Source: Spartobacteria bacterium
GTDB lineage: Bacteria; Verrucomicrobiota; Verrucomicrobiia; Chthoniobacterales; Chthoniobacteraceae
Assembly (NCBI GenBank): GCA_043760145.1
Contig: JAYUPM010000360.1
Coordinates: forward strand, 1-28,378
Direction of reading: 5' to 3'
DNA: 28,378 bases
In this document: positions 6,001 through 24,697 of the stretch, in pieces
How positions within the stretch are numbered: the first letter of the stretch is position 1
Layout: every line of letters starts with the position of its first letter
The notes under the pieces: model-generated
Database searches by the model: none
What the model saw: the letters and a program-made list of their open reading frames with translations, nothing else
Told to the model about the DNA's origin: nothing
Translations under genes and position numbers: made by a program

Positions 6001-9000
6001 CGTTGCTCAATGATCGAGCCGTGAATGGTGAGCAGCCCGCCAACAGAGAGCGGCAATGGACGTGAGCCCGAACCGATGATTGTGACTGAGCCCGGTTGCG
6101 ATAGACCTCCCACTGTGTAATCAGATGCCGCAATCGCAAATGCCACCGCAGTTGGCGGATAAACCTGGCCCGCAATCATCACGATCTTGCCTGCGACATT
6201 CAATGTCCCATCCCCCCGGATATCCCCCTTGTGCGCAATGAATTTCGCCAACCCAATTCCTTGCAACGACAAGTTCCCGATATCGATCAAATCAGCGGTC
6301 ACAGTCAGACTCCCCGCCCCATAAGTCGGTGAGAAATTGAATGGGACTGAGCCGGATTGGAATGGGTTGCGCGATTCTTCCGGGGCGAATGGCGGACGGA
6401 ATGGTGTGCCCAAGACTACATGCGGCGCGGTTAATCGGACTGCGCTATCGCTGAAGATCACACCCCCACTGCCAACGTTAAGGCTTCCCGCTGTCGCCAG
6501 GTTGATCAGTCCAGAAAAGTCGACGCTTCCCATCAGCGAGACCGCATCAAACCCGCCCCGGGCAAAAGTGGAAATGGAGATATGGCCTTGGGCAAGGGCG
6601 TTCCCAGTGCCATCAATGATCGGCTTGCCGACGCGCTTGCCGGGGGCGAGGAAATTCTGCGGAACGTTCAAGCCGTCCTGCGTCACGAAGAGCGTCACGC
6701 TGAGCGGAGTCTGCGGGGTCGAATCGCCGAGCGCCACGAAGCGACCCGAGGAGAGGGTGATCGAACCGCCGAGCGCGCTGGGTCCGCCTGCGCGTCCGAT
6801 GAGTGTGGCATCGCTAAAGAGCGCCTGACCACCGGCTAAACTGATCGAGCCGGCGCTGGTTTCCACCAAGGTCGATGTCACCAGCGATCCAAGGAATGAT
6901 CCCTCCATCGGACGTGCTGGAAGCATTCCAAGCATCCCGTATCCGAGGGCGAGATCGAGGTTCGTCTGGGTCCCAGAAACGTTGAGCCGCGACCCGGCCG
7001 CCGCAACGATATTGCCACTCACATTGATGCTCCCACCGCGAAGCGCGAGCCCGACGTCATTGCCACGCGGATCCGCAAGCATCACGGTCTTTCCTTTCGC
7101 AGAGAGCACGGAATTGGGTCCGATAAACACCGTTGCCAGGGCTTTCAACTGCGCCTGTGCGATCTCGGGAAATACGACGTTGGAATCGCGGCCGCCGCCA
7201 ATCGTGATTGCGCCGCCGGGGGCAAAAATGGAGCCGAGGACCGTCGCGGTTTCGCCTGTCAGCGTCACACTCCCGAGCGCGTCGGTGGTGATCCGGGTGC
7301 CTCGTCCAAGCACCAAATCTCCACGGATAATTGGGAGCTTGGTGAAACTGTCGCGGACACCGAGCGCGTTGAAAGTCAGACTGACCGGTGAGCGATAGCC
7401 CTCAGGTTTATCGACGGGAATCAGGGCGATATTGGTTCCGTTAGAATCGGGCACTGCAACGCTGCCACGGACCTGCGGGGCGAGCTCGATCCCGGCCGAG
7501 ATCAGGATTGCTGGAAGCGATTCGCCTGCGCCGTTCAAAGCACCGAGCCCCTTTAAAGTGAAGCTGGCAAACCCGCCTTGGTTAAAGAAATCCGTTGGAA
7601 GCAAAAGGGTTCCGGGAATGCGAGTCAGTCCACCGACTTGAATACGCGGCGCAAGAATACTGAGGGAACCACCCTTCGCTCCTGAATATCCGAGAAGATT
7701 GGCGCCAAGGTTGAGGTGTCCACCGATAACGGCCGCGAGAACGGGATCGCGGGCAACCGTCGCGGCCTGTCCCGCATTGATCACGATCCGGCCGCCGTTG
7801 CCATAGGTCCGTTTCCCAGTGGGAGTAAGAGCCACCCCGCCCGAGACATCAATCGTGCTTCCGGAAATCAGATTCACATTGTAACTGGAAATGGAGACTG
7901 AGCCGCCACCATTGATGAATGGCTGCTCCCCGGGCACAGGCGTCCCAGCCCGGTCATCCACAATCAATCCCGCCGTGTTCAATTTCGCATCCGCGCCCAA
8001 CGTGAAATGTCCGCGACGCTTATTGGGCTCCGGCGTTTGGGCAGCGTCGGGACTGGCAAGTAAATCAGCGACCGTTGTGGGCGAAATATTATGCGCTGTC
8101 AGTGTCAGGTTGCCGCCGGCGATTGTGATGCTCCCCTCGATATCGATATTGGATCCATCAAGGGTAAGCGACCCGCCAACTGTCCCATTCAACGACACTC
8201 CTTTCGACACCACGATCCCTCCATCCGCATTGCTGATCGTCAGATTGCCAAACCCGCCGGGCCCCACCAATTCGGGGGCGAGAAACACATGACTGCGCCG
8301 CTCAGGCCGCAACGCGAATGGGTTGCCCGTCGGATCGAGCCGGAATGCAACTGGCGCAGGCGCTTGGAGCCCGTTCTGGAATATGACTTTGGGCGGCGTT
8401 GGCGAAAATGTTTGGAACCGCGGACCGGTCGGGGATTGCGCCTGAAAAGTCAGCGACAAAGTGCTCAGCCCGGGTCCAACCACGCGCTGGCGCGGACCTG
8501 TCACCGTATGGCCGACCAATGATCCATCAAGCGCCACGGCAGGCGCATTGATGGTGAGGGATCCTCCGTTTCCACCATGCGTGTAACCCGGTTCAAAGTG
8601 CTCGCCATCAAGTGCCAGCGGGTTTTTGAAGGTCTCGCTGAAACTGTATTTCGGATGGAACTCGGTGAAATTCCCCGTGTAAATCCCGTCGTAGATTTGG
8701 TCTGGAGTCGCTTGGGTAATATCGAGAAGACGCGCCCCTTGGATCAGCCGGGTGGTTTTTACAAGCCCCCCAAGATATTCAACGGTCCCGCCGGAGACAT
8801 CGACCTTGGAGCCGCTTTGCAACACGACGGAGCCGCCCGCATTAAGTTTCACGTTGCCGCCCGCAATCGTCAGTTCGCCAACGCTGCGCTCGATGAGCCC
8901 GACATATCCGGCCGCGTTTGCGAGCGGCGTTCCCACCCAATTGGCCCCGTTGAATATGCCACTTTCACGCGCATCGATTTGGATTGTCGCGCCACGGAAG

Positions 9001-10775: not shown

Positions 10776-11383
10776 TGTTTGATTCGTTGTTCAGAGAGTT
10801 TGTCCGAGTATTCCTGGACAAGGTTTTCGAGCTTCACCCGCGTTGTTCCCACAAACGGTTCCCGGGCTAAAAGCGCCGTCCCGAGCCCAAAATTTTCATA
10901 TCGGGAAAGGATCTCCGTCCCGATCTTGAACATCGCGAGGTTCTTGGTCCGCTGATCCGCCACCCGCCGCTGGAGCTCGATCCCTTGCATTGCCAGCTTC
11001 GCCCGCTCCGCTTCCTTGGTCGCTGCCGTCTCCGCCGCTTTGATCTGGGCAGCCTTCCATTGCGCAAGATCCGCCCGCAGTTTGGCAATCTCACTCCCTT
11101 GCGCCGCCGCTTTTTCCGTGAGATCGCTGATTGATTTTTCCGTCGCTTCCTTCTCACCCGCCATCTGTTTGGTGAGCGTTTCGAGCTGGGCCACAAGCAC
11201 CTCGTTTTTCTGCTCCGCCTCCGTTTTTGCGATCTCGAAATTATCGCGCTGGCTCTGCATCGTGCGCAACTGAAGAAGCGCGCTGCGGAGGCTTTCCCGG
11301 AGCTTCAATTCGTCAGCGCTTGGATTGGCAGCTTGCAGCGATGAAATCCCGCAAACCATGAGAAGAATAATGAGGCGAATCAT
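10772..11383 (-). CDS. Secreted/periplasmic coiled-coil protein (PA0697-like accessory of the TPS/porin cluster)
   Basis: Sec signal MIRLIILLMVCGISSLQA. Long Ala/Glu/Lys heptad region. C-terminal LLAREPFVGTTRVKLENLVQEYSDKL resembles the small proteins that follow the porin in this cluster type. Translationally coupled to tpsA. Confidence 0.8.
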   Translation of the reverse strand: MIRLIILLMVCGISSLQAANPSADELKLRESLRSALLQLRTMQSQRDNFEIAKTEAEQKNEVLVAQLETLTKQMAGEKEATEKSISDLTEKAAAQGSEIAKLRADLAQWKAAQIKAAETAATKEAERAKLAMQGIELQRRVADQRTKNLAMFKIGTEILSRYENFGLGTALLAREPFVGTTRVKLENLVQEYSDKLSEQRIKQ

Positions 11384-11385
11384 AT

Positions 11386-13323
11386 TTAGAATTTTCCCGA
11401 GTAAGAGACTTCGAGAATGTCCACGTTGAGTGGCGGCCCCGCGATTTCCTGGGCGCTCATCCAGCGCATTCCAAGCGAGACCCGTGGCGAGATGGCGACC
11501 GTTCCAGAAAGGCTGTAGCCGCGCAGATTGGTCCCCCCGAGCCCGAAGTCCGAGTCGCTCAACCCATCCACCACAGCGTCAGATTCCACGTATCGGTAAC
11601 TGAGTCCGAATTGCCAGTCGCCCGCTTTTTGCAAAGCCGCAGCGCCAACCTTGACTCCTGCGATCCATGCCGTGTCGCCCCCATCGAACTCGCCGACTTG
11701 TCCAAGAGCGGAGTTCGGCCCCCGGTTATTCACGGCGATGCGGTTCATCGCCTCGCTGTCGAATGCCACGTTCTTCGCCCATTCAGAAAAGATCGAAATC
11801 TGGAACGGTTCCCATCGCGTCAGGTCGAGTTTTGCAGAGACAACGACTTCATGGAACGGGGTGGCCAGGCCGAAGTATTGGAACTGGTTTGTGGTGCCGA
11901 AATTATTGAGCGGGCTCGCAATAATCCGCCGCAGTGGCCGATAAGTATTCCCTTTCTGGGCAAAGGAAGGCCGGGTGTTATCGGTGTTGCCCGCATCGTT
12001 TGCAGCGAGCGGAAGGAACGGATCGGAAAGCTGCCCCTCGATATTGTCGAATTGGTAATACGCGACGGCCAGTTTCAGGTTGATCTCTTTGCGCGCCCGC
12101 CAATCGATTCCGAGTTGCCCGCCATAGAGCCATTTATCGGTGCTCTTGAACTTCGCGGGCTGGTTGGAAGCGAAATTGAAATCGGTGTTGAAAACCGGGA
12201 ATGCGCCCGCGCTGAAAAACGGTGTGACGCCGGGCAACACTTCATACCGGGCCTGCAACGCCACCCCATCAAATCCCACATCGTCATCCCAAACGATATC
12301 GCTCGCTGTGAAGAATGGATTGTCGAAACGCCCAGCCGTGATTGACAGCCTCTGGGAGGCGTCCTTGCCCGCCTCGTAACGCAGGAACCCGCGATCCAAC
12401 CAGATACTGTATTTGGAAAAGTTCCCACCCTGTCCCTGGTTGGCCAGACCAAAGCTTTGGTTGGTCGAGACCGGCGAATTGTTTTCGCCCGTCGCAATCC
12501 GCATCCCGGCGGTAAACCCATTTCCGAGATCCGCCTCCAGCGCCAAACGCAAGCGCAATCGGAGCCGGTGGCGGTTTTGATCGACATTGAATTGTGGCGA
12601 GAACTGGGTGCCGCTCACATCAAAAGGCGCGCCCGTATTGATCGAGTTGAAATTGGGAAACGCGCCGGTGTTATCGTTGGCGTCTGGAAAAAATGTGCCG
12701 TCGTAACGAACACGGACATCACCCGAGAGCCGGATCCGAGTGGTCCATTCCGGAAGGGTGCGCGGCGCCGCCCAGTTCTCCGCGCGAGCCGTGGCCATGA
12801 CCTCCTGCTTGATCTCCTCGCGCATCTGCGCCCTGACGCTCTCCGGGATGTAATTGACCATCATCCCCTCGTCTGCCCCGTATGGATCGGCTTCAGGCGG
12901 AGCCGCAGCCTGCGCCGTTGCAATCTGTTCAACAGCCACCGCCTGGGCTTGTGCCACGATCGTGTCGGCTTCCGCTTGGTTGATCAAATCGGTGGCATCT
13001 TCCTGCGTTAAAATACCGCGTTGCACCAAGCGCTGGATCAGGTTGATCGTCACATTGGTGGAAGGCCCCGACGCCGGAGGTCCTCCTTGGGTGAGGTCGA
13101 GTTCCTCAGCTGCCACCGTTGTTGAAGCGGTTGGTTCGGTCCCAGCAGAAGGAGCAGCCGCAATTAACGGAGCCGATTGAGGGAGATCAGAGAGGTCGAT
13201 TGTGGGGACCTCGGAAGAATCCCGGGGGCGTCCAGCCAACGCAGAAAACTCCCCGGCAAAGCAGCAGATCGATGCGAGCGCAAGCAGCGGGTTCCAGCGA
13301 ATAAAATGTGAGTGAGATGACAT
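11386..13323 (-). CDS. Putative outer-membrane porin (Porin_5-like beta-barrel) with N-terminal periplasmic extension, 645 aa
   Basis: Start reassigned to ATG 13323 (MSSHSHFIRWNPLLALASICCFAGEFSALA, signal peptide); the track start at 13620 overlaps tonB. Helical segment TINLIQRLVQRGILTQEDA, amphipathic strands (RIRLSGDVRVRYD, RLRLRLRLALEADLG), DDDVGFDG motif, C-terminal Phe (YSGKF). Confidence 0.85.
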   Translation of the reverse strand: MSSHSHFIRWNPLLALASICCFAGEFSALAGRPRDSSEVPTIDLSDLPQSAPLIAAAPSAGTEPTASTTVAAEELDLTQGGPPASGPSTNVTINLIQRLVQRGILTQEDATDLINQAEADTIVAQAQAVAVEQIATAQAAAPPEADPYGADEGMMVNYIPESVRAQMREEIKQEVMATARAENWAAPRTLPEWTTRIRLSGDVRVRYDGTFFPDANDNTGAFPNFNSINTGAPFDVSGTQFSPQFNVDQNRHRLRLRLRLALEADLGNGFTAGMRIATGENNSPVSTNQSFGLANQGQGGNFSKYSIWLDRGFLRYEAGKDASQRLSITAGRFDNPFFTASDIVWDDDVGFDGVALQARYEVLPGVTPFFSAGAFPVFNTDFNFASNQPAKFKSTDKWLYGGQLGIDWRARKEINLKLAVAYYQFDNIEGQLSDPFLPLAANDAGNTDNTRPSFAQKGNTYRPLRRIIASPLNNFGTTNQFQYFGLATPFHEVVVSAKLDLTRWEPFQISIFSEWAKNVAFDSEAMNRIAVNNRGPNSALGQVGEFDGGDTAWIAGVKVGAAALQKAGDWQFGLSYRYVESDAVVDGLSDSDFGLGGTNLRGYSLSGTVAISPRVSLGMRWMSAQEIAGPPLNVDILEVSYSGKF

Positions 13324-13349
13324 GAATTGAAAAATTGTGCGGGCTGGTT

Positions 13350-14144
13350 TCAGTTGGGACGATTGGCCGTGAGACGAAGCGAAATCGGCATCGTCATCCC
13401 TTCCGGCGGACCTTCCGGAAGTTGGATCCCAGCAAGGATCTCGTCCTTGAGCACCGCATCCACTGACGCGTCCCCAGTTGTGCCGTCCAGTTGCGCCCGC
13501 GTCACACGTCCACTCGCATCCGGCCAAACTTTCACATTTACCCGGAGACTGGCATTGCGCGTTTTGCGATGGTTGCGCATCGCCTCCGCGATCTTCGCCT
13601 GGAGCTTGCCGGCATACCACGCCGCACGCGTGCCATCGCCGCCACGCCCTTTTCCATTTCCACCAATCATCCCATCGCCTCGGCTGCTTAATCCCATCCC
13701 CGGTCCTTTGCCGCCTTTGTTGTTGGTGCCAAGTCCTTCCGGCGGTTTCTCCACAGGCTTCGGCTTGTCTGCATCGGGCTTGACGGTCGGTGCCTGCTCA
13801 ACTGGCTTCACCTCTTTTGGAGGAGGTGGTGGCGGTTTTGGCGGCGACGGCGGAGGAGGGAGCTGGATCTTCACCACGGTCATCGGTGCCGGCGCTTTGC
13901 GAGCCGGCGCGCTTTTGCCCTCAGACTTGCCTAGAACCGCCCAAAGGATCCCGGCGACAACCACGCATCCCACCACCAGGAGAACCCGGAACCGTTTAAA
14001 AAAGCTCTCCTCGTCCTGGTCGTCATCCGGTTGATTGGATGGTTTGGGAGCGGTGGCAGCGCGGGGTGAATGGGACTTATAGGTCTTATACGACTTATAG
14101 GTCCTATTCTGCGGCCTTTCGAGTAGATCTAGTTGGTTACTCAT
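13350..14144 (-). CDS. tonB: TonB/TolA-like energy transducer (TonB_2-type C-terminal domain), 264 aa
   Basis: Start set at ATG 14144, 8 nt after the exbD stop. Single TM helix (VLLVVGCVVVAGILWAVLG), Pro-rich linker (PPPPSPPKPPPPPPKE), Gly-rich segment, C-terminal domain with VWPDASGRVTRAQLDGTTGDASVD. Confidence 0.82.
   Translation of the reverse strand: MSNQLDLLERPQNRTYKSYKTYKSHSPRAATAPKPSNQPDDDQDEESFFKRFRVLLVVGCVVVAGILWAVLGKSEGKSAPARKAPAPMTVVKIQLPPPPSPPKPPPPPPKEVKPVEQAPTVKPDADKPKPVEKPPEGLGTNNKGGKGPGMGLSSRGDGMIGGNGKGRGGDGTRAAWYAGKLQAKIAEAMRNHRKTRNASLRVNVKVWPDASGRVTRAQLDGTTGDASVDAVLKDEILAGIQLPEGPPEGMTMPISLRLTANRPN
14074..14109. repeat. 9-bp-period AT-rich repeat inside the tonB coding region
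   Basis: GACTTATAG-GTCTTATAC-GACTTATAG-GTCCTATTC. It translates on the minus strand as NRTYKSYKTYKS. Confidence 0.8.
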
Positions 14145-14151
14145 GGCGTAT

Positions 14152-14550
14152 TTATTTCGGCTTGGTTGCCAGGCCGACTTGCGTGATCCCGATCCGCCCA
14201 AGGACATCGAGCACATCCATCACTCCCTGGTATTGGGTCTGGCTGTCGCCCCGCACCACCACCGGAAATTCCGGGGTCTTGCTTTTGACTTGGGCGAGCT
14301 TCTGTTCCAGCTCCTCAAGGCTCACGGGAATCGTGTTGAGGAACACGTTGCCTTCGTTATTGAGCGTGATCGCCTGGGTCTTCGGGCCCTCGCTTTTTGT
14401 GGTCGGCCCCCCCGCCGTCGGCAGGTTCACTTTGACGCTCTGGACCCCGGCTGTCGTCATGATGATGAAGATCAGCAGGAGGACCAAATAGAGGTCCACC
14501 ATCGGCGTGACATTGATGTCATCATACGATTTGTCGGAGTCAGCTTGCAT
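14152..14550 (-). CDS. exbD: Biopolymer transport protein ExbD/TolR
   Basis: DINVTPMVDLYLVLLLIFII with the conserved TM Asp, and C-terminal VVVRGDSQTQYQGVMDVLD. Confidence 0.95.
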   Translation of the reverse strand: MQADSDKSYDDINVTPMVDLYLVLLLIFIIMTTAGVQSVKVNLPTAGGPTTKSEGPKTQAITLNNEGNVFLNTIPVSLEELEQKLAQVKSKTPEFPVVVRGDSQTQYQGVMDVLDVLGRIGITQVGLATKPK

Positions 14551-14568
14551 GAGTCAAATGTGGGCGCG

Positions 14569-16455
14569 CTAATCGTTGCTGGATGGAAACGCCTCCGCGA
14601 TTTTCGCAATGAACTCGTCGATGAAAATTTGCATGTCGCTGATCGCATCCTTGATCCGCGAACTGAGGTAGCTGTAGGCAAACAACGCCGGGATCGCGAC
14701 CGCCAGGCCCGCCACCGTGGCCAGCAACGCCCCCGCAATGCCGGGCGCAATCGAGTTGACTTCCACCGCCCCGGTTTTCGCAATCACGGCGAACGTGATC
14801 ATGACCCCGATCACCGTCCCGAGCAGCCCGAGATAAGGGCCGCCGGCAATACCGATCGTTAAAAAGACCAGGTGCGAATTGAGCCGTTGGACCTCACGCA
14901 ATAGGCCGCCATCCAGTGTCGCCCGGATCGCTTGCATCGAGCGCCCCGAGAGCCCATTGAACTCATTCTCGGCGTTCTCTATCCGGTGCTGAATTTCCGA
15001 GGAGCCGATCTTGTAAATATGATAAAGCGGCGAGTGGCGCATGAGCTTTTGCGCCTTGCTGTTGGCTTTCCCGCCCATGCTCTTGACGTTCTGCTCGTCC
15101 CCGTGATCAAGCACGCTGAGGTCCGCTGCCAAATGATCCCACTCCTTCAGGAACGCGTTGGTGGCCCTCTTGATTTTGTTGAGGTAAACAAACTTCATTC
15201 CCGCCACCACCCACCCCACAACCGCCAGTATCCCGCACAGCACAATAACCACCCATCCGTCGATCGTCAGCGATTTGGAGATGTCCGAGATCAGCGTAAA
15301 ATGCTTTGCCAATTCGCCTTCCCCGCCGTGGCCCGATTCCTCGTCGTTGCCCACCGCCAGAAGCTTTAGCGCCTTGTCACCAGTCCCCTGGCTGAGCGCG
15401 GCGAGTTTCAAATAACCGAGTGGGCGCGCAATCTTCGAAATCTCAAGTTCATCGAGTTCGCCGGAAAAGCCAGCGGCAGTCGGATCAGCGGGAGTGGCTG
15501 CGGCAACCGTTTCGCCACCAAGCAGCGCGATGCTTTTAAATGCGGGCAGGGCGGCGTGCAATGTGCCGTAAGTTTCGCCATCCAATAAAAGTGTCACCGC
15601 CTGGCCGGATACCACCACCGAAAGATGCCGCCATGTCCCCGCTGTCAAAGGCGTTCCGGCTGCCGTCCGTTGCGTGCCTGCTGCATTCGTGATCTCCAAA
15701 AATGGCACCCCTCCATCTACTCCGATCCGAAAACCGGCGCCTTCCTCGCGTCTGCTGAAAAGGATGGCGTTGGGGGAAAGAGTCGCCGGCTTGATCCACG
15801 CGCTCCATGTCAATGCAGCGCCCTCGTTCCAGTTGAGCGATGCGGATTCCGGGAGCTTCAACGCGCTTTTTCCGTCGAGGCGCAAACCGTTCCCGATCAA
15901 TGTTCCTTCAGCAGAACGTCCCTTGTCCTGGGCGTTATTGGCGTTGCTTGTGGAATCGAGCGGCGCCGCGTTGGACTCCGCGAAATGATAAACCAGGAGC
16001 GTGTCCGCATCGTATGTGGCCTTCGGATCCCCTGCCCGCGCCACTTCCCCAGCATTCCCGTAATAAAGCCAGAAACTCGTCTCCGCCCCCGGCTTGATAT
16101 CGCCGACTTTGACCCAGACAAATGCCTCGTTCAGAAGCGCATCGAATTTTTCGAGGTGAAATGGGAGGAGCGTCTTTTCATCGGCAGCGACAAAGCGAAG
16201 GTCGCTCCCGTCTTCCTTCGCGGAAGTGAATGTGAAATTCCCCTGGTGAAGCCGCACAAGGACAACGGCGCTTCCAACAGCGTCTGTCAGTGGAACACCA
16301 GTCGCCCCGGTGTTGACCGTGATCTTTTTGCGCACGCTCCATTCCGCGTTCCACCATGCCTGGGCCGGCGTGGAAAACATCCAGCACGCCACGACACAAA
16401 ACCAGATGCCGCGTGCGAACCGAGAGAGAGCCTTGGGATTACCGTAAGTTGCCAT
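14569..16455 (-). CDS. exbB: DUF2341 + LamG-like domain fused to MotA/TolQ/ExbB proton channel
   Basis: Signal ending AQA/WWNAEWSVRKKIT. DUF2341 motifs DGSDLRF and FWLYYGN. LamG-like TWSAWIKP...WRHLSVV. ExbB TM motifs GPYLGLLGTVIGVMITF and IAGALLATVAGLAVAIPA. Confidence 0.92.
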   Translation of the reverse strand: MATYGNPKALSRFARGIWFCVVACWMFSTPAQAWWNAEWSVRKKITVNTGATGVPLTDAVGSAVVLVRLHQGNFTFTSAKEDGSDLRFVAADEKTLLPFHLEKFDALLNEAFVWVKVGDIKPGAETSFWLYYGNAGEVARAGDPKATYDADTLLVYHFAESNAAPLDSTSNANNAQDKGRSAEGTLIGNGLRLDGKSALKLPESASLNWNEGAALTWSAWIKPATLSPNAILFSRREEGAGFRIGVDGGVPFLEITNAAGTQRTAAGTPLTAGTWRHLSVVVSGQAVTLLLDGETYGTLHAALPAFKSIALLGGETVAAATPADPTAAGFSGELDELEISKIARPLGYLKLAALSQGTGDKALKLLAVGNDEESGHGGEGELAKHFTLISDISKSLTIDGWVVIVLCGILAVVGWVVAGMKFVYLNKIKRATNAFLKEWDHLAADLSVLDHGDEQNVKSMGGKANSKAQKLMRHSPLYHIYKIGSSEIQHRIENAENEFNGLSGRSMQAIRATLDGGLLREVQRLNSHLVFLTIGIAGGPYLGLLGTVIGVMITFAVIAKTGAVEVNSIAPGIAGALLATVAGLAVAIPALFAYSYLSSRIKDAISDMQIFIDEFIAKIAEAFPSSND

Positions 16456-16465
16456 GAGTTATTCT

Positions 16466-18292
16466 TTAAAAATCAGCGGAGACACGGAAGGTGAACAGGA
16501 GGTCGCCCGCCTGGCTGTTTGCCTGCGAGATGGCCGGGATCGCCAGGTCGAGTGAGCCATTGAAGTGATTCGACAACTCGATCCGGCTCCCGATTCCGAA
16601 GCTCGCGAGCTGGAAGTGCGATGCCTGTTGCGGCAACGGCTCGTGGATCGAGAGCGCTCCCACGTCCCCAAATGCGTAGATCCGCCATTCCTGGTTTTTC
16701 CCCCATGCCCCAAACGCCCCCGTGCCCCACCCGAGCAGCGCCGGGCTGCGCAATTCGGCTGTCCCAAAAATCGCGTTGTCACCGAGCACCTCCGCCTCCA
16801 GATATCCACGGGCGCTTCCGAGTCCACCCCCTGCAAACTGTTCGCTGTTGACCAATGGCTGATCCGCGATCTGCCCATGCACCTTGAGATAAGCCTGGAA
16901 CCCGCCCGGCAACTCATGCGTATGGGATAGATCGCTCCGTATATAGATGAAATTGGAGTCGGCCTTGAACCGGTTATTTTCAAACTCATTGGATCGATTG
17001 CCGACCCCGCGGATGCCGAGCGTGACGCCCGCATTGAATTCGGTGACGGAGTTTTTGGGGGGCGCTGAAGTGGTGGCCGCTGCCGCATCACCTTGCGCAG
17101 CCGCGTCCTTCGACTTCCCCGGGTGGCTCCATGTCGCCGAATAATTCGCGCTGATCGGGTAGTATGTGATCGGCGTGAGCAGCGTCGTTTCACCAATCTC
17201 AATCGCCTGGTTGAAGTGCTTGTAATCAAACCCCGCATTGAATGACTGATAAAAATTCGGCCCCGATGGCAGCGTGATGATTGCGCGCCCCCCATAAACT
17301 TCACCGCGCCCAGCCACCGCAATGCTTCCAAGCGTGCTGACATTGGAATCCTGCTTGGTCGCCTGAAGCATTAGGCTCAGCCAATCGACGTTGGGAACCC
17401 GCGCAATGTAATAGCCGGAGAACACTTTGACTTCCGACCAATCCTCTGGCGAAAGCTGGAAGTTGCCGCCGATGGAATGCCCCGCTTGCCACAGGTTATT
17501 GTAACTGAGCGCCCCGGAAAGCCGCAGCGGTGTGGTATCCGCGCTGTAACGGTTATTAAGTTCAATGCTCCCGTGCAGCGGGAATTTGTCTTTGACCGTT
17601 AAATCGATGTCCACCAGCCCGGGCTCCGCGCCCGCCACCATCGACGGGGTCACCTGCCGGTCCGGCCAAAGGTTGAGCGCCACGATGTCCCGGGTGACAT
17701 CGTTGAAATTCACTGCCCGCCCTTCCGCCAATGATTGCGCTTTCGCCTTGATCACACTCGGCAAAAAATAACGCGCCCCTTTCACCCGGACCTGCCCCAC
17801 TTTCCCTTCGCTCACCTCAAGGATCACAATGCCCCGCCGCCCTGTCTGCGCGGGAATTTGGACCGAGGCACCTTGAAAACCCTTTGCCTGATACGCCTTT
17901 TGCAATGCGGCCCGAGCGCCCTCCACATCATCCGCCGTCCGGCCCGGTCCGAGGAACGGATAAACGGCCTCCTCCACTTCCATCTGCGGCAACTCGTGCG
18001 CGCCGATCACCCGGTAGCGCCGGATATAAAGTGGTTTCAACGTCGGCTTTTCCATCTCCCCTCGTGGCAGCGACGTCTCGTCGCTTTTGGTTTCCGAGGT
18101 TGGCTCCGGCTTTCTGTCACTCATTTCACCAAGAGATCCAATCAACGGAAGACCCAGCCACAAGAGGGCTGCTGGAGCCAATCCACGACCGGGCCTGACC
18201 CGACCGGTTTGGTTGAAGATGGATTGGAAGATACGCACGGAGAGGTCGGAGCAAGGTTGTTGTAGCTGTCTCCAACCCTCGCGCTCTCTCAT
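16466..18292 (-). CDS. ShlB/FhaC/HecB-family TpsB (Omp85) transporter, PdtB-like
   Basis: POTRA motifs (IRRYRVIG, LQKAYQAKGF, ILEVSEGKVGQVRVKG), loop-6 motif GGLGSARGY (VRGY/F variant), C-terminal VSADF. The real start may be GTG at 18238 (MRIFQ...AALLWLGLPLIGSLG), because ATG 18292 overlaps the Pho-box-like site. Confidence 0.92.
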   Translation of the reverse strand: MREREGWRQLQQPCSDLSVRIFQSIFNQTGRVRPGRGLAPAALLWLGLPLIGSLGEMSDRKPEPTSETKSDETSLPRGEMEKPTLKPLYIRRYRVIGAHELPQMEVEEAVYPFLGPGRTADDVEGARAALQKAYQAKGFQGASVQIPAQTGRRGIVILEVSEGKVGQVRVKGARYFLPSVIKAKAQSLAEGRAVNFNDVTRDIVALNLWPDRQVTPSMVAGAEPGLVDIDLTVKDKFPLHGSIELNNRYSADTTPLRLSGALSYNNLWQAGHSIGGNFQLSPEDWSEVKVFSGYYIARVPNVDWLSLMLQATKQDSNVSTLGSIAVAGRGEVYGGRAIITLPSGPNFYQSFNAGFDYKHFNQAIEIGETTLLTPITYYPISANYSATWSHPGKSKDAAAQGDAAAATTSAPPKNSVTEFNAGVTLGIRGVGNRSNEFENNRFKADSNFIYIRSDLSHTHELPGGFQAYLKVHGQIADQPLVNSEQFAGGGLGSARGYLEAEVLGDNAIFGTAELRSPALLGWGTGAFGAWGKNQEWRIYAFGDVGALSIHEPLPQQASHFQLASFGIGSRIELSNHFNGSLDLAIPAISQANSQAGDLLFTFRVSADF

Positions 18293-18319
18293 GACATCGG
18301 AATGTCAGGCAGGTTACAT
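18291..18319 (-). promoter_or_regulatory. Pho-box-like operator: three direct repeats at 11-bp spacing
   Basis: The minus strand reads ATGTAAC-ctgc-CTGACAT-tccg-ATGTCAT. Cores GTAAC/GACAT/GTCAT lie exactly 11 bp apart, matching the PhoB half-site CTGTCA(T/C) architecture, directly upstream of the operon. Confidence 0.65.
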
Positions 18320-18696: not shown

Positions 18697-19101
18697 TTAA
18701 TGAGCCTTACCACGGCGCATTGGTTTCGAGTTGGCTTTGAGCCATGCAGCGTAACCGGCCTCTGTCATTTCGCCCGCGGCAAGCGCCAGGGTTTTCATCA
18801 CCGCGTCCGCCTGACTCGCCTTGAAGTGGTGGCTATTTCGTTCCAAAAAACCCGCCCCCATCATGAATCCTGTGCGTTTGTTGCCATCGATAAACGGATG
18901 ATTCTTCACAATCCCCGCTGCGTAACTTGCCGCCAGCTTGGCCATGGACGGTTTGCCATATGCGAATAGATTGCGGGGTTTGGCGAGGGCAGAATCGAGA
19001 AGATGCTCATCGCGGACCCCGCCAAGTCCGCCGAATTGCGAGATCATCATTTCGTGCAACGCCAGGCATTCTTCCCGGGTCAGCCAGTAAGGCTGTTTCA
19101 T
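18697..19101 (-). CDS. doc: Fic/Doc family (death-on-curing) toxin
   Basis: GVRDEHLLDSALAKP and active-site HPFIDGNKRTG. Overlaps the antitoxin stop (ATGA). Confidence 0.95.
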   Translation of the reverse strand: MKQPYWLTREECLALHEMMISQFGGLGGVRDEHLLDSALAKPRNLFAYGKPSMAKLAASYAAGIVKNHPFIDGNKRTGFMMGAGFLERNSHHFKASQADAVMKTLALAAGEMTEAGYAAWLKANSKPMRRGKAH

Positions 19102-19325
19102 TTTGCCAGTTCGCGGAGCGTGTCCCGGTAGCGCTGGGCCAGGTCACCAAACGTCGCCATCGTCTTCGCAAAATCCTGATTGGTTGCGCTCACATGAAAA
19201 CCGTCAGGAGTTTCGGTAAGCAGCACCGAGTCGCCTTCCTCCGCCTTGAGATGGGCAAGTGCCTCTTTTGGAAGGACGACCCCGAGCGAATTGCCAACCT
19301 TGCGCAGTTTAAGTTCCAGGTTCAT
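19098..19325 (-). CDS. AbrB/MazE/SpoVT-family antitoxin
   Basis: LKLRKVGNSLGVVLPKEALAHLKAEEGDSVLL is the AbrB-fold signature. 75 aa, directly upstream of doc. Confidence 0.93.
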   Translation of the reverse strand: MNLELKLRKVGNSLGVVLPKEALAHLKAEEGDSVLLTETPDGFHVSATNQDFAKTMATFGDLAQRYRDTLRELAK

Positions 19326-19800: not shown

Positions 19801-22800
19801 TTACTTCACCGAGACATCGACTGCACCGCTCTCTGCTACTCCTCCCCCAGCAATATAGTGGAAGTAACCAGAGGCCATGTTGGTCTTCTGGTAAGCCACT
19901 CCGGTGAACTTCACGGTTTTCGAGTTGGTCGGATGGATGAAGCTGCCGCTCAGGGCTCCAGTTGTCGCAACGAAGACCGCCTTCGGATTTGCAGCAAATC
20001 CTGTCTCCCCGGTTGTGGCGCCAAGAACGGTTAGCTTGCTCTTAGCGTCAATGCTGACGTCATGGGAGTGCTTGGTGGCAAGGCCGCCATCGATCATCTC
20101 AAGGATGAGATTTGCCGTGGAAGCGCTGATCGCGGCTGTGGCTCCAAGTCCAAGAACCGTGTCCGGGTTGGGCGGAATCGGGACCGTGGCGGTTGGCGCT
20201 TTAGCAACGACGAACTTGGATGCCACGAAGTCGGAGCTGATTCCGTTTGGCCATCCGGATGGGTAGAGGCCAGTGGCGGAACCAGTGTTCGGCTTGAGCC
20301 ATGTCACGACCGATGAGGCGTCTGATTCCAACTGTTGATCATCAAAGGCCACATTGCCGGTGACGAATCCTTTCTTGGCATAGAGCGGGATGAACACGGG
20401 CCACTCGCCATTAACCGAGAGCGCATTGGCATAGGAAATCGCCGATCCGTCGGCCAGTTTACCGACTATCTTCACCACACCACTGGCGGAGACGGTGATC
20501 TGACCAACCCCGGATCCCTGCGGGAATCCTGCCTTGGCAACACCGTTGTTCGGCGCTGCGTTGGCCTGGAAGAGGGCAGTATATTTGCCCTTCTCGTAGT
20601 TCGCATCGAGGACCGCGTTCGGGACATTGCGCAGCGGCAGTTCCGGATAAGGCTTCGATGTGTAGTAGGCGTGATCAGCATTCAGGATCTCCGCAAGCAG
20701 GAGAGCGCCACCGGTTTTGATTGTGCCAGTGATGGTGCTTCCATTCGGGTCAACATTGAGGGCCAGGAGGCCGAGCGAACTGCCGTTCTTGAGCAGGTCC
20801 AGGGTGGTTGTAAACCCTGCGCCGAACCGGACATCACCATTGTTTAGGATCGATCCCTTGAACGGGATGGTAACCCCGCTGAGGGTGATCTTTCCGGTGA
20901 GTGTGCCAGTGGTGGAAACAGTCACGGCAAGGAGACCGTTGTAGTCAAACGGGGCGGCAGATGCCTCCTTTGTAACCAGGCCGTTGTAACTGCCAGCCAG
21001 CAACTTCCGGACATGCACGAAGTTGAAGCTTTGGGTCCCGACAATCCGCTCGGTTCCGAACTGATCGATGACTTTGATGGAGACGACATTCGAGCCTTGC
21101 TCCGGCGTGATGTTGAGGCTCCATGCAAAGTAGTCCCGGTTCTCAGATGGCGTCGCAGTTCCTACAAGGACTCCATTGAGGGTGACTTCCACCCGGTTCA
21201 CACCGTTGGTTGCAGTGGCGATCCCGCTCAGTGTGATGTCATCGAATGCGGTGACCTTGGCGTTAGCTTTCGGGCTGGTTGTCGATCCATTGAGAACTCC
21301 CGGGGCGACGATGCTTACTGTTGCGGTGTCTTGGGCCCCAAGTGAAGCGCCCCCAACAATGTTTCCGAGGGCAATAACGATGGTTTCGTCCATCTCGCCG
21401 ACTGCTGCAGCTTTGATCGTGATATTGAAGCTCTTGGATCCCGTCTCGCCATTGGCCCAGCTAAGGGTTGCTGGTAAACCGGTGTAATCCGATCCCGTCG
21501 TGGCAGTCCCGCCAGTGCTCGTCACATCAACGCTGATTGCTCCGGTCACGCCGTTGGAACGGGCGGCGGTAACTGTCAGTGTCACATCCGCCGCGCCTTC
21601 GAGGATCGGATAGGTCGCCGCTGTAAGCGCAACCGTGCCGGGAATGGTCGGAACGAAATCACTGATCGTCACGGTGGCCGTGGTCGGGGCGATTAATGAT
21701 GTCCCAATTGATACCGAGGAGAGGTTGACTGTGAACTCCCGGCTGCCTTGGTCTCCGAGGCGGTTGGCAATACTGATATCGACTGTCTTGCTCGATTCAC
21801 CCGCAATAAAGCTGACCACAGTTCCCGGAACTGCACTGTAGTCTGTTCCCGCTATCGCCGTCCCATCTCCTGTCGATAGCGTAACCGATGAATTCCCGGT
21901 TAAATTGCCAGTCCTTGATACAGTCGCGACAACCTTGCCGCTCGCCACGTTTTCCACCACAGGATACGTGGCACTCGCAAGGGACACGGCAGTTTCCGCT
22001 TCAAGGACGGTGACTGTCTGAATGTTTGGAACATCAAGTTCAGCTCCGGCTGAAGGGCTGGAAAGTGATACAGTAAACGTCCTGTCGCCCTGCACTCCGG
22101 CACGGTTTGCCACAAGGACATTGACGGTCTTGCTCATCTCACCCGCCCCAAACGCGACAACAGTATTGGTTTGTCCGGTGTAATCAGTGCCAGCAACCGC
22201 AGTTCCATTACCGGTGCTTAGGTTTACCGAAACAGCAGAAGTATCCTCGGTTCGGTTGATAGTAACTGTGACCTGGGCCCCTGTTTCACTTACCGAGGCA
22301 GTTGCCGATGACAAACCAATGATCGCCACTGGAGACGCCGGTGTGAATGTCAGAACCCCGGCGTTATCGATCCCGAATTTTCCGACATATCTGCCGGGCG
22401 CTTGCACGGCGCTCGGCAGCAACCGGTAAAGTTCGAGAACAGATCCCGCAGTCCCACTTGCAAACGTCCCCTCAATGGTCGGATTAAAGTGCGCGAAGCT
22501 GAAGCCCGGGGCCGGTCCTGAATTCACCGTTGTCCCGCCATTCTGGAACGATGCGTAACTATTGGTGTCCGTGGTGTTTTGAATCACCCCAACGGGGCTG
22601 TTGACCGTGGAGTTATTGGCTGTCGCCGTTCCTGATTGTGTCTTATATGCGCCCGCTAAAGAGCTCATCTTCGCGGTTGCCGCTGTTTGCGCTGACTCAC
22701 TCCGGCGCGTCCAGCGCGCATCCAAAGCGTTTTGGGATGCCGGCACTGTCCTGACTCTCGTTGCGTATAGCGTCTTGGCGGGATCGGCCCCCACTCCCGC

Positions 22801-23109
22801 AAAGTTGCCTGTCGCCCCGGAGATACTCCAGAACACATCAGCCCGGCTATTCCATGTTGCACTGAAGGTTGCACTTAGGTCAGCTTGAATCGCCCCAAGT
22901 CCAGGAACCGTAAATGAACCTCCCCCGGCTGTGTAGAGCGATGCCTGCCCGATGTTCACCAAATAATCCTGGGCTGCGCCAGTTCCGCCAGTTGCACGGA
23001 AGCCGAGCAACAAATCTCCGTTTGCATAGGAAACAGGGGTCTGGGCGTAAAGCGTGGGTGACAGCAGGCCCCCCAATGCTGTCAAAGCCATTATTGTAAA
23101 TCGTTTCAT
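19801..23109 (-). CDS. Secreted multidomain surface protein: N-terminal verrucomicrobial domain, 3 Calx-beta repeats, Ig-like domain, ~400-aa uncharacterised C-terminal domain
   Basis: Signal MKRFTIMALTALGGLLSPTLYA. Calx-beta motifs GTAVAGTDY, GTAIAGTDY, GTATTGSDY. Ig-like TSPKANAKV...ITLSGIATATNGVNRVEVTLNG. Thr/Gly/Ala-rich. Confidence 0.88.
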   Translation of the reverse strand: MKRFTIMALTALGGLLSPTLYAQTPVSYANGDLLLGFRATGGTGAAQDYLVNIGQASLYTAGGGSFTVPGLGAIQADLSATFSATWNSRADVFWSISGATGNFAGVGADPAKTLYATRVRTVPASQNALDARWTRRSESAQTAATAKMSSLAGAYKTQSGTATANNSTVNSPVGVIQNTTDTNSYASFQNGGTTVNSGPAPGFSFAHFNPTIEGTFASGTAGSVLELYRLLPSAVQAPGRYVGKFGIDNAGVLTFTPASPVAIIGLSSATASVSETGAQVTVTINRTEDTSAVSVNLSTGNGTAVAGTDYTGQTNTVVAFGAGEMSKTVNVLVANRAGVQGDRTFTVSLSSPSAGAELDVPNIQTVTVLEAETAVSLASATYPVVENVASGKVVATVSRTGNLTGNSSVTLSTGDGTAIAGTDYSAVPGTVVSFIAGESSKTVDISIANRLGDQGSREFTVNLSSVSIGTSLIAPTTATVTISDFVPTIPGTVALTAATYPILEGAADVTLTVTAARSNGVTGAISVDVTSTGGTATTGSDYTGLPATLSWANGETGSKSFNITIKAAAVGEMDETIVIALGNIVGGASLGAQDTATVSIVAPGVLNGSTTSPKANAKVTAFDDITLSGIATATNGVNRVEVTLNGVLVGTATPSENRDYFAWSLNITPEQGSNVVSIKVIDQFGTERIVGTQSFNFVHVRKLLAGSYNGLVTKEASAAPFDYNGLLAVTVSTTGTLTGKITLSGVTIPFKGSILNNGDVRFGAGFTTTLDLLKNGSSLGLLALNVDPNGSTITGTIKTGGALLLAEILNADHAYYTSKPYPELPLRNVPNAVLDANYEKGKYTALFQANAAPNNGVAKAGFPQGSGVGQITVSASGVVKIVGKLADGSAISYANALSVNGEWPVFIPLYAKKGFVTGNVAFDDQQLESDASSVVTWLKPNTGSATGLYPSGWPNGISSDFVASKFVVAKAPTATVPIPPNPDTVLGLGATAAISASTANLILEMIDGGLATKHSHDVSIDAKSKLTVLGATTGETGFAANPKAVFVATTGALSGSFIHPTNSKTVKFTGVAYQKTNMASGYFHYIAGGGVAESGAVDVSVK

Positions 23110-23129: not shown

Positions 23130-24293
23130 TTAGTAGTTCGGGGTAATCAGCGCCCCGTCACCGGCGCGGGAGACAGTCATGGTGCTTAGGAGGATCGGTG
23201 AATCAACTGTCCGGATCTGAGTGGCCAGAGCGTCTGCAACGGACTTTTTGGCAGCAGCTAGGGATGGCAAATACATCAAGTGTTCATAACACCAGAAGGT
23301 GTATTGACCGTTCTGGACCGCCGCGAGTGAGTATGTCGTCCCGCCGTATGTCAGTTCCTTGGCACCACCAGCAATCGCGTTGTCAGCATCGTTGGTTCCC
23401 ATGTAGCTGATGTAATATCCGTTGATCCCGGCAAGCGTGGTTTTCTTCAAGTTATCCCGAAGGGTGTTTCCGCTTGTCTCGCCGCTCTGCCCAACGCCAA
23501 CCGGAATTCCGGTTGTTGTCGTGCCCGCTGGATAGGGCGCATGCCCCGTTACAGTCGAGCCGGATGTCGTGGGCTTATACTGAAGAACTGTCGAGAATAC
23601 TCCGATGCCCGATTCGGCAAAGGTCGTCAGGCGTGTGCCGGAATCCGGGTCGCGCCCTGTCGCGAACACGGAAATGGTCTGGTCTGCAGGATTGTTAGTA
23701 AAAACTGCGAGTGGGATCTGGCCGGTTGACCACAGCGCCTGCGCCAATTGCTGGGTGATGTTGTTCAATCCCGCTGGAGCCCCGTTGCTTGCGACAAACT
23801 TAAACCCAATCACACCCACTACCGTGTCTGTCATGACCGGGGAGGCGAACGCGGTCGAAGCTTGATAGTTATCGGTCATCGCCACTTCAGCCACCAACGC
23901 CACTGTGCCGGTTGCCGCAATCGAAGTTCCGCCGGTAAGGGTAGTGCCGCTCGCTGTCACAGCGCTTGCTGCGGTGAATTCAGCATCGGCGATTGTAAGG
24001 ACCGTTGCACTCTGGGACACACTCTTGGTCCCGCCAACTGCCCCTGACCATGATGTCTTAAATGTTACTGTGTCTGCCCCGATTGTTCCGCGGATTATCG
24101 CAAATGAACTGGAGCCTAGATCAGTTCCTTTATAAACCGCTGTCGGGCTTGTTAGAATCTTACTGATCGACAGATTGGTTTGTGCCCGGAATGCCGTTGA
24201 TCCTGTGATGACGACATCAACATTGGCGGCAAACGCCGAACCGCAAAGAGCAAGGGTGATCGAGCCCGCGAGGATTGTAAAATAAGGTTTCAT
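23130..24293 (-). CDS. Secreted PstS/DING-like (periplasmic binding protein type II fold) protein, 387 aa
   Basis: Signal ...GSAFA/ANVDVVITGSTAFR. Motifs line up in order with PstS phosphate-site segments: GSTAF (GATFP), WSGAVGG (GSSGG), AMTD (GASD), GRDPDSGTR (RADGSGT). No lipobox. Confidence 0.7.
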   Translation of the reverse strand: MKPYFTILAGSITLALCGSAFAANVDVVITGSTAFRAQTNLSISKILTSPTAVYKGTDLGSSSFAIIRGTIGADTVTFKTSWSGAVGGTKSVSQSATVLTIADAEFTAASAVTASGTTLTGGTSIAATGTVALVAEVAMTDNYQASTAFASPVMTDTVVGVIGFKFVASNGAPAGLNNITQQLAQALWSTGQIPLAVFTNNPADQTISVFATGRDPDSGTRLTTFAESGIGVFSTVLQYKPTTSGSTVTGHAPYPAGTTTTGIPVGVGQSGETSGNTLRDNLKKTTLAGINGYYISYMGTNDADNAIAGGAKELTYGGTTYSLAAVQNGQYTFWCYEHLMYLPSLAAAKKSVADALATQIRTVDSPILLSTMTVSRAGDGALITPNY

Positions 24294-24445
24294 TGTATTA
24301 ATGGTGGTGTCTGCCTGTTAGTTGTTAGAAGTAACGAGTGTGTGTTGGTCTGAGTTTGGGTGGTCCTGTAAGGTTGTTTGCGCCGCCAGTTTCCATTACT
24401 TTCCACGAGTCTCAACCAGAGTATTGTTACGATTACCCGCCGAGT

Positions 24446-24463
24446 ATGGCGAACATGTGACAG
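24446..24463 (-). promoter_or_regulatory. Second Pho-box-like site upstream of the PstS-like gene
   Basis: The minus strand reads CTGTCAC-atgt-TCGCCAT (18 bp, 7-4-7, first half-site perfect), about 150 nt upstream of ATG 24293. It is followed by an AC-rich leader lacking a Shine-Dalgarno sequence. Confidence 0.45.
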
Positions 24464-24511
24464 ATACGCCGCCGCTGCCGCGCTCGGACAAAAGTTGATG
24501 TGTATCATCGC

Positions 24512-24697
24512 CATTTCCTCCAGCCACTGGTTGGCATTGGCGCCATCATGCCACGGGAGGCGCCAGTCATTGGAATGATCCATCAACGCATGACAAAACT
24601 CATGGGCGAATTGCTGTGCATACTGGGCCAGGTAAGTTTTTTCCGTGCATAGCCCAAAGCGCTTCGCGATGGGCACGCTGAACAGATACCATGGGAC
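24512..24697 (-). pseudogene. N-terminal-side fragment of a putative HExxH metallopeptidase
   Basis: PWYLF...LCTEKTYLAQYAQQFAHEFCHALMDH...NQWLEE. An in-frame stop lies immediately upstream (24698-24700), and similarity ends abruptly after WLEE. Confidence 0.65.

Follow-up and report, generated by a model that had tools for sequence, protein, structure and literature searches.

A Verrucomicrobiota-specific family of predicted PstS-fold proteins paired with a surface-protein head domain and linked to a Pdt-type gene cluster

PstS-family proteins encoded outside pst operons are already known from Pseudomonas, where they are linked to the Pdt region. In P. aeruginosa, this locus comprises pdtA, phdA (Phd family), pdtB, exbB2, exbD2, tonB4, PA0696 (putative porin), PA0697, PA0698, and PA0699, a PpiC peptidyl-prolyl isomerase (PPIase) (PMC7035377); the locus, which includes an uncharacterised Ton part, is transcribed under phosphate starvation via PhoB and sigma-VreI (PMC7035377, PMC4971064). 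LapA, a PstS/DING-like protein reported to be a secreted low-molecular-weight alkaline phosphatase, is encoded beside pdtA and is Pho-regulated (PMC7035377, PMC2242829). In P. fluorescens, the DING protein Psp, which is low-phosphate-induced, phosphate-binding and secreted, is encoded directly before a gene for a 4083-residue haemagglutinin-like protein (PMC2225411); LapA and DING of P. aeruginosa are found at the same place, and PstS and DING proteins occur on surface appendages of that species (PMC2242829). Here we describe a gene from a 28,378-nucleotide stretch of DNA of a Spartobacteria bacterium (GCA_043760145.1, contig JAYUPM010000360.1, positions 1 to 28,378; hereafter, the window), derived from sediment metagenomes, the product of which is predicted to adopt the PstS fold. 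New with respect to Pseudomonas are the large, unannotated and highly diverged verrucomicrobial family to which this protein belongs, the pairing of the family with a head domain that lacks a structural relative, and the Pho box of TGTCAC type that comparison of relatives points to in front of it.

The gene and the parts of its product that are discussed below are the following.

23130..24293, minus strand: PstS-fold gene, an open reading frame (ORF) encoding 387 residues, stop codon included
Residues 1-22 of the 387-residue protein, minus strand: Sec/signal peptidase I signal peptide, MKPYFTILAGSITLALCGSAFA followed by AN, with cleavage between AFA and A
24186..24203, minus strand: GSTAFR loop, residues 31-36, aligned by hhalign to the Thr10/Phe11 loop of E. 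coli PstS with a register uncertain by one residue
24030..24050, minus strand: WSGAVGG loop, residues 82-88, with A85 placed by hhalign at E. coli Ser38 (G-I-G-S38-S-G-G)
23862..23879, minus strand: MTDNYQ, residues 139-144, with D141 as the probable Asp56 counterpart
23631..23654, minus strand: RDPDSGTR, residues 214-221, aligned by hhalign to E. coli R135-A-D-G-S139-G140-T141
23133..23177, minus strand: C-terminal TVSRAGDGALITPNY, the last stretch of the predicted PstS fold by superposition, profile alignment and conservation

The predicted mature N-terminus is ANVDVVITGSTAF. The cysteine within the signal peptide is not conserved among relatives, so that the protein is best regarded as soluble and exported, not as a lipoprotein. 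A word-indexed search retrieved 274 relatives at E<=1e-3, nearly all titled 'hypothetical protein', and an exhaustive search of 50%-identity representatives yielded 1176 family clusters, 866 of them at E<=1e-10. All of the 80 loci taken from GTDB species genomes belong to Verrucomicrobiota, namely, to Chthoniobacterales, Verrucomicrobiales, Opitutae, Pedosphaera and Akkermansiaceae, with a single cultured carrier, a strain of Prosthecobacter fluviatilis; across an even sample of the phylum, the family was detected in 5 of 121 genomes. A genome search found one copy in the source genome. Tandem or multiple copies are present in some other genomes (loci L029 and L034; genome G081).

Neither Pfam nor NCBIfam contains a model that recognises the protein, and the matches obtained were at chance level only (GAF_3, E 0.053; LpqE; RuvB-like). 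The hidden Markov models (HMMs) of the PstS and PBP_like_2 families considered were PF12849, TIGR02136 and TIGR00975. PF12849 did not match the protein at E<=0.1 or any of 40 family members at E<=1, and TIGR02136 (PstS family) gave E 0.22 and 10.7 bits against a cut-off of 206.6; phmmer comparison with PDB sequences returned only chance-level matches. The protein is a member of a Verrucomicrobiota-specific family that is unseen by these libraries.

An AlphaFold2 model, for which a 40-sequence alignment was the input, reached a predicted local distance difference test score (pLDDT) of 93.2 and a predicted template modelling score (pTM) of 0.88. The 26 best Foldseek matches of this model were phosphate-binding proteins, headed by 4lat (E 4.5e-12), and the first other fold appeared at rank 27. 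Structural re-alignment on PstS1 of S. pneumoniae (4lat) gave Z 25.8 and a root-mean-square deviation of 2.8 A over 253/260 residues, covering the model range 25-387; the top 21 entries were again phosphate-binding proteins, and the best non-PstS fold, that of LysR effector domains, scored Z 14.4. The same two-lobe fold is thus predicted as in PstS of the short PstS1 type (S. pneumoniae 4lat/4exl and L. brevis 4ecf; Z 25.8 and 24.8), with Z 18.5 for E. coli 2abh, and the DING-type structures 5j1d and 5jk4 (Z 16-17) scored below PstS1. At the sequence level, the family profile matched PstS1 4exl with E 2.9e-5 and L. brevis PstS 4ecf with E 1.6e-3, and hhalign aligned it with a PstS profile (21 verrucomicrobial PstS, the source genome's own PstS and E. 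coli PstS) with 94% probability and E 2.5e-8. Such a profile was required because single-sequence hhalign runs against own-genome PstS and E. coli PstS produced short local matches only; homology to PstS is detectable solely in profile-to-profile comparison. Together, the model and the profiles point to a complete two-lobe PstS-type type II binding fold, bearing out the PstS-like fold that had been proposed in an initial annotation made from the DNA sequence.

The family departs from PstS in several respects: identity is 12-17%, no PstS HMM is significant, the position of Ser38 is occupied by Ala in the window protein, and there are ~105 extra residues, which form three insertions rich in beta structure in the model, near residues 47-73, 95-135 and 232-272. 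Some members, of 456-480 residues, contain a further inserted segment of ~90 residues, and 3 of 40 members gave a weak match to the FlgD Ig-like domain (E 0.004). The C-terminal 15 residues, initially suspected to be an assembly or export motif, fall within the predicted globular fold. In the profile alignment, the family stretch 'mkVsRatdGgv' (positions up to 370/375) falls opposite 'MKVEKDAAGTV', close to the PstS1 C-terminus, and hhalign pairs the PNY that ends the window protein with the PLY that ends E. coli PstS. Conservation among 250 members is confined here to M372, V374, R376, D379, G380 and V/I383, and the last four residues (TPNY) are variable, or missing in a third of the members. 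Because the superposition with PstS1 extends to residue 387, we do not consider the tail to be a sorting or export signal.

In E. coli PstS, phosphate is held by Thr10, Phe11 NH, Ser38, Asp56, Arg135, Ser139, Gly140 and Thr141, and Asp56 is the residue that selects phosphate over sulfate. We mapped the site of the window protein onto the MG1655 sequence, numbered as the mature protein, and computed its conservation over 250 family members. The GSTAFR, WSGAVGG, MTDNYQ and RDPDSGTR motifs follow one another in the PstS order, as initially noted, that is, as Gly-Ser-Thr, Gly-Ser/Ala-x-Gly-Gly, the probable Asp56 and Arg-x3-Ser-Gly-Thr, behind a signal peptide as in PstS. Within GSTAFR, conservation is 92% for S32, 84% for T33 (with Ser in a further 11%), 96% for A34 and 98% for R36; within RDPDSGTR, it is 99% for R214, 98% for S218, 100% for G219, 94% for T220 and 100% for R221. 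In the match to PstS1, the profile stretch DVamsD (E/D-V-A-M-x-D141) is aligned with DIGNSD, and D141 and Q144 are conserved in 98% and 94% of the members, respectively; D141 is the preferred Asp56 equivalent because it is 98% conserved and the alternative position is variable. In total, the alignment, in which the Asp56 register is ambiguous, sets T33/A34-F35, A85, D141, R214, S218, G219 and T220 against the E. coli ligands. Seven of these eight ligands would thus be kept, Ser38 being the exception, and all of the positions are 84-100% conserved in the family. Further near-invariant residues, which may shape an extended pocket, are R36, Q144, R221, E227, Y331, W334 and R376.

These patterns indicate that the ligand site is conserved rather than decayed. 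The initial annotation had read two of the motifs as signs of an altered site. The replacement of Ser by Ala at position 85 is real, and its importance appears minor: Ser is found in 215/250 members (86%) and Ala in 34/250 (14%), and the substitution, which would cost one side-chain hydrogen bond and keep the backbone NH, looks like a recurrent tolerated variant, not a loss of function. RDPDSGT is no deviation at all, being the family norm in which the Arg, Ser, Gly and Thr are all kept.

A dedicated transporter is not found with this family. PstC, PstA, canonical PstS and PhoU were all undetectable in the 80 neighbourhoods (1.39 Mb) searched with E. coli and own-genome Pst queries, in agreement with the lack of ATP-binding cassette (ABC) transporter pairing that the initial reading implied; only generic ABC ATPases were found, several kb off. 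With the same queries, 14-16 of the 30 canonical pstS loci yielded PstC or PstA, although their flanks were limited to 1.5 kb. A canonical PstS, recognised by PF12849, is encoded separately in the source genome, on a different contig and ahead of a PstC-like frame. Thus, unlike PstS, the window family never occurs beside pstCAB and nearly always occurs with a head-domain protein.

This second protein is encoded immediately downstream of the PstS-fold gene in the window.

22324..23109, minus strand: head domain of the 1102-residue partner, its first ~262 residues including a signal peptide
19801..22323, minus strand: remainder of the partner, with three Calx-beta domains, one Big_7 domain (Pfam) and a ~400-residue C-terminal region without a family match

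The complete partner gene (19801-23109, 1102 residues) had been taken for a large adhesin-like neighbour of the PstS-fold gene. The comparison of loci narrows the association considerably: only the first ~240 residues after the signal peptide are conserved beside the PstS-fold gene, and the partner in most loci is a separate protein of 260-290 residues that ends in PEP-CTERM (VPEPS...RRRR), with TIGR02595/PF07589 matches. Other loci encode the head domain in fusion with Calx-beta, Ig, PKD or TSP3 modules. By tblastn, the head domain is adjacent to the PstS-fold gene and on the same strand in 61 of the 80 loci (upstream in 36, downstream in 25) and lies within 3 kb in 72. Full-length head-domain matches were found in the same five of the 121 sampled genomes that carry the PstS-fold family and in none of the other 116; the head domain is located beside the PstS-fold gene in four of these five and ~4 kb downstream in the fifth. 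In genome G081, with two PstS-fold copies and three head domains, each copy is flanked by at least one head-domain gene. Such tight pairing suggests a physical or sequential interaction between the two proteins.

The head-domain model (pLDDT 85) retrieved nothing from PDB with Foldseek at E<=0.001, and exhaustive VIA-align alignment to 48,161 PDB chains gave none with Z>=5 (best 3.8); the structural relatives found are limited to verrucomicrobial Atlas clusters. One stand-alone partner showed a weak full-length match to floc_PepA (NF033554; E 1.7e-5, 24.8 bits). The stand-alone partners, which are secreted proteins of ~260-290 residues with a VPEPS...RRRR end, resemble PEP-CTERM surface proteins such as the flocculation protein PepA; this score, however, is far below the 80-bit cut-off, and the window copy has Calx-beta repeats instead of PEP-CTERM. 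A Pfam scan detected no PEP-CTERM in the window partner, and no exosortase was found in the source genome, which is 85% complete. In our literature search, no publication connected PEP-CTERM proteins to PstS-like ones.

The upstream region of the PstS-fold gene and that of tpsB contain the elements listed here.

24294..24383, minus strand: AC-rich, G-poor 5' leader without a Shine-Dalgarno sequence, by composition here and in 37 orthologues
24446-24462, minus strand: Pho-box-like site TGTCAC-ATGTT-CGCCAT (as CTGTCAC-ATGT-TCGCCAT, 24446..24463), 169 nt upstream of the ATG and on the same strand
18291-18307, minus strand: Pho-box-like repeat before tpsB, the only phased TGTCAY site with <=1 mismatch in the 28-kb window

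The long AC-rich leader seen initially was confirmed: it is 76% A+C and 10% G over 90 nt, compared with 50% and 29% for the strand and with mostly 37-58% A+C at other gene starts in the window. The feature recurs in the 37 orthologues with a fixable start (mean 65% A+C and 17.5% G; locus-wide, 51% and 30%) and would fit an unstructured leader and an efficiently translated product. The Calx-beta gene does begin 20 nt after the PstS-fold stop codon, as stated initially. A strong terminator had also been described, which would suit a major subunit followed by an accessory gene; no intrinsic-terminator-like site was found on the minus strand near the stop, 198 of 200 shuffled sequences fold more stably than the 121 nt around it, and no terminator separates the PstS-fold gene from the next gene. 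Most likely, the pair is transcribed as one unit.

The Pho-box-like site differs from TGTCAY-N5-TGTCAY by two mismatches, with one perfect and one degenerate half-site. Scored on both strands against the 14-base E. coli consensus, it reaches 10/14, a value attained by 15% of random 445-bp windows; this result is superseded by a family-informed, strand-aware test. In the latter, a same-strand site with <=2 mismatches was found upstream of 36 of 78 orthologous operons (46%), compared with control rates of 3.3% in random pieces, 3.1% in shuffled sequences and 5.1% in GC-matched windows. The 1.39 Mb contain 60 phased TGTCAY-N5-TGTCAY sites with <=1 mismatch, and 27 of these are found in the 350 nt ahead of cluster genes: 18 before a head-domain gene, 4 before tpsB and 2 before a PstS-fold gene are among them. 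Several are near-identical elements, TTGTCAC-N4-TGTCAC-TTAGCGCGC, 130-190 nt before the start codon. The 30 canonical pstS loci contain only three such sites, all directly upstream of pstS, in two genomes. Hence, the initially reported site is present and belongs to an enriched class (46% vs 3-5%); taken by itself, it is no better than what 15% of random windows offer. The enrichment in relatives, together with a window site of the same class, makes phosphate control of the family likely and that of the window copy plausible. Four related loci, too, have a <=1-mismatch site before tpsB.

Three further observations concern these regions. Ahead of tpsB, at 18291-18319 on the minus strand, half-sites TGTAAC, TGACAT and TGTCAT follow one another at 11-bp spacing, the last two forming the <=1-mismatch site. 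The leader and the Pho-box region are overlapped by an ORF of 128 residues (24290-24676, minus strand) that contains an HEFCH motif and weakly matches Peptidase_M78/IrrE (E 0.004, below the cut-off); its tail is the translated AC-rich leader, and it is probably a gene remnant. In locus L003 (7694-9686), the operon is preceded by a divergent OmpR/PhoB-type response regulator and an LMWPc arsenate-reductase/aquaporin pair, a module linked to phosphate starvation in other bacteria.

Downstream of the partner, the window encodes a two-partner secretion (TPS) system together with a Ton motor and a porin.

16466..18292, minus strand: tpsB (POTRA_2 and ShlB; Pfam)
14569-16455, minus strand: DUF2341-LamG-ExbB (Pfam)
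14152-14550, minus strand: ExbD (Pfam)
13350-14216, minus strand: TonB-like protein (TonB_2; Pfam)
11386-13620, minus strand: Porin_5 ORF, true start uncertain (Pfam)
10772-11383, minus strand: ORF for a 203-residue protein
3..10775, minus strand: giant TpsA of >3591 residues, an open frame that runs off the window end, with the TIGR01901 filamentous haemagglutinin N-terminal domain

The block from DUF2341-LamG-ExbB to the 203-residue protein spans 10772..16455 on the minus strand. With TpsB, ExbB, ExbD, TonB_2, Porin_5, the 203-residue protein and TpsA in order, the window matches the Pdt-type cluster (PA0690-PA0699) in family content and order, and the gene order recurs in relatives. Two rotamase genes, comparable to the PpiC PPIase gene of the Pdt locus, are present in locus L005, where the PstS-fold gene itself is located inside the block, after the rotamase genes and before TpsA. 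DUF2341-ExbB is encoded on the PstS-fold contig in 5/5 carrier genomes and in no other sampled genome of the class; the literature search found nothing functional on this protein. Pseudomonadota, too, have proteins of the DUF2341-LamG-ExbB architecture and clusters with Porin_5.

Like the Pseudomonas DING/Psp and LapA proteins, the window protein is a PstS-family paralogue encoded away from the pst operon and beside genes for a giant TPS exoprotein and for TpsB-ExbB-ExbD-TonB-porin(-PPIase), with evidence of Pho control. It differs from DING proteins, which are about 40 kDa, are closest to HPBP/PfluDING and begin in mature form with DINGGG(ATL), by the lack of DINGGG, and no head-domain partner is reported for the Pseudomonas locus. 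The PstS-rich appendages of multidrug-resistant P. aeruginosa are a precedent for a surface PstS-type protein under low phosphate (PMC2242829); the protein there is ordinary PstS or DING, in appendages of undefined architecture, whereas a surface location of the window protein is putative. Hxc-type secretion genes were not found in the neighbourhoods whose Pfam tables were examined.

Several neighbouring features accompany the cluster. The Porin_5 ORF (GTG at 13620) shares 270 nt with the TonB-like ORF, and its Pfam match starts at residue 189, so that the true start of the porin is probably further downstream. Between the Calx-beta gene and tpsB, on the minus strand, a MazE/AbrB-like ORF of 75 residues (19098-19325) overlaps a Fic/Doc ORF (18697-19101) by 4 nt. 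The two look like a toxin-antitoxin pair, at the place that phdA occupies in the P. aeruginosa pdt locus (PMC7035377); locus L001 has a PIN pair at this position. On contig C276 of the source genome, a second Porin_5 (PF16930; L007:3-1406) lies directly upstream of canonical pstS-pstC (pstS, 1441-2256), and porin-pstS pairs were also observed in loci L090 and L102. The occurrence of Porin_5 before canonical pstS ties these barrels independently to phosphate uptake in the phylum and suggests that they are the phosphate porins of Verrucomicrobiota.

We lean, with some reserve, towards the view that the window protein is a PstS-superfamily member that is exported and independent of a transporter, a Pho-controlled binder of phosphate or a phosphoryl group that works with the head domain and the Pdt-type cluster. 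Under phosphate starvation, the PstS-fold protein would be made in quantity, an abundance suggested by the Pho box and the unstructured AC-rich leader, and its retained pocket would bind orthophosphate or a terminal phosphoryl group. Docked on the head domain of its co-encoded partner at the surface, it would form a high-affinity phosphate trap at the envelope, from which phosphate would proceed through the Porin_5/Ton module to ordinary periplasmic PstS-PstCAB. The identity of the ligand, direct docking, a location beyond the periplasm and the hand-over to Porin_5 are the steps that we infer. Several points count against this view. That the PstS-fold protein touches the head domain is deduced from synteny alone, and the PstS-fold protein could stay periplasmic. 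Equating D141 with Asp56 relies on one low-scoring local alignment and on conservation, and hhalign is ambiguous as to whether the second insertion precedes or follows the D141 strand. The second half-site of the window's own Pho box is degenerate. Ton/TPS genes are present within 10 kb in only ~30 of the 80 loci, and the likeness to Pdt was judged by Pfam content, gene order and published annotation, not by sequence comparison.

A more specific version, which we offer tentatively and consider rather unlikely, is that the PstS-fold protein and the head domain make up a surface phosphate-capture complex on a PEP-CTERM anchor or a calcium-binding Calx-beta/TSP3 stalk, passing its ligand to a Ton-powered Porin_5 channel; the target might be mineral- or polymer-bound phosphate. 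If this is true, the complex would provide the first substrate for the unexplained Pdt-type TPS/Ton cluster, that of Pseudomonas included, and an ABC-independent outer step of phosphate acquisition.

Some bacteria have several PstS copies, and the most likely of the alternatives, itself an unlikely one, is that the window protein is an extra periplasmic PstS paralogue feeding a PstCAB encoded elsewhere, the surface-protein gene being merely co-regulated. The PstS fold and ligand residues, the Sec signal peptide, the canonical pstS-pstC in the genome and the Pho-box enrichment would all be expected of such a paralogue. It would not account for the strict adjacency to, and phyletic co-occurrence with, one particular head domain, for the ~105 extra residues with a further segment of ~90 residues in some members, or for the lack of a permease gene in 80 neighbourhoods and of PF12849 matches among 40 members. 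Head-domain genes, most of them with a PEP-CTERM end, accompany the family almost one to one, as would be expected if the protein were a sorting or holding factor for head-domain proteins, with a pocket that binds a phosphorylated lipid or glycan carrier, or a periplasmic chaperone that delivers them toward an exosortase or a Ton-powered porin; the extra invariant residues R36, Q144, R376 and W334 could also be accommodated. We regard this possibility as improbable: the window partner has no PEP-CTERM, the 85%-complete genome yielded no exosortase, and the conserved probable Asp56 equivalent and the buried-anion ligands suit small phosphate better. We know of no precedent for a PstS-fold sorting factor.

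Slightly less probable still is an enzyme resembling LapA that releases phosphate from organic esters at the cell surface. The equivalent place of LapA beside pdtA and its Pho regulation (PMC7035377; PMC2242829) speak for it, as do the extra conserved polar residues near the site motifs; however, there are no defined catalytic residues with which to compare it, plain binding proteins head its structural matches, and the ligand set is that of a binder. We give least credence to the initial proposal, in which the protein is a structural subunit, made in abundance, of a surface layer or fibre and the large protein encoded downstream serves as tip or accessory. An AC-rich leader is typical of well-translated genes, the insertions are beta-rich, and the PstS-rich appendages of P. 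aeruginosa (PMC2242829) offer a precedent; on the other side, there is no terminator or attenuator that would give an excess of the subunit, the supposed C-terminal assembly motif lies inside the globular fold, the pocket is conserved as in soluble binders, and the partner in most relatives is a small PEP-CTERM protein encoded upstream, and not a tip adhesin.

The analysis defines two sizeable families that are invisible to domain libraries, the PstS-fold family, with more than 1100 clusters, and a head domain without a structural relative. Clusters of the Pdt type, with a giant TPS fibre, a private ExbB-ExbD-TonB motor and a special porin, are found across phyla and, in Pseudomonas, are phosphate-starvation-induced and virulence-linked. 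A co-inherited PstS-fold protein with a conserved predicted anion pocket and a dedicated surface partner provides a concrete ligand hypothesis for this cluster. As Verrucomicrobiota are abundant in soils, lakes and sediments in which phosphate is limiting, an extra capture step of this kind would bear on the competition for phosphorus.

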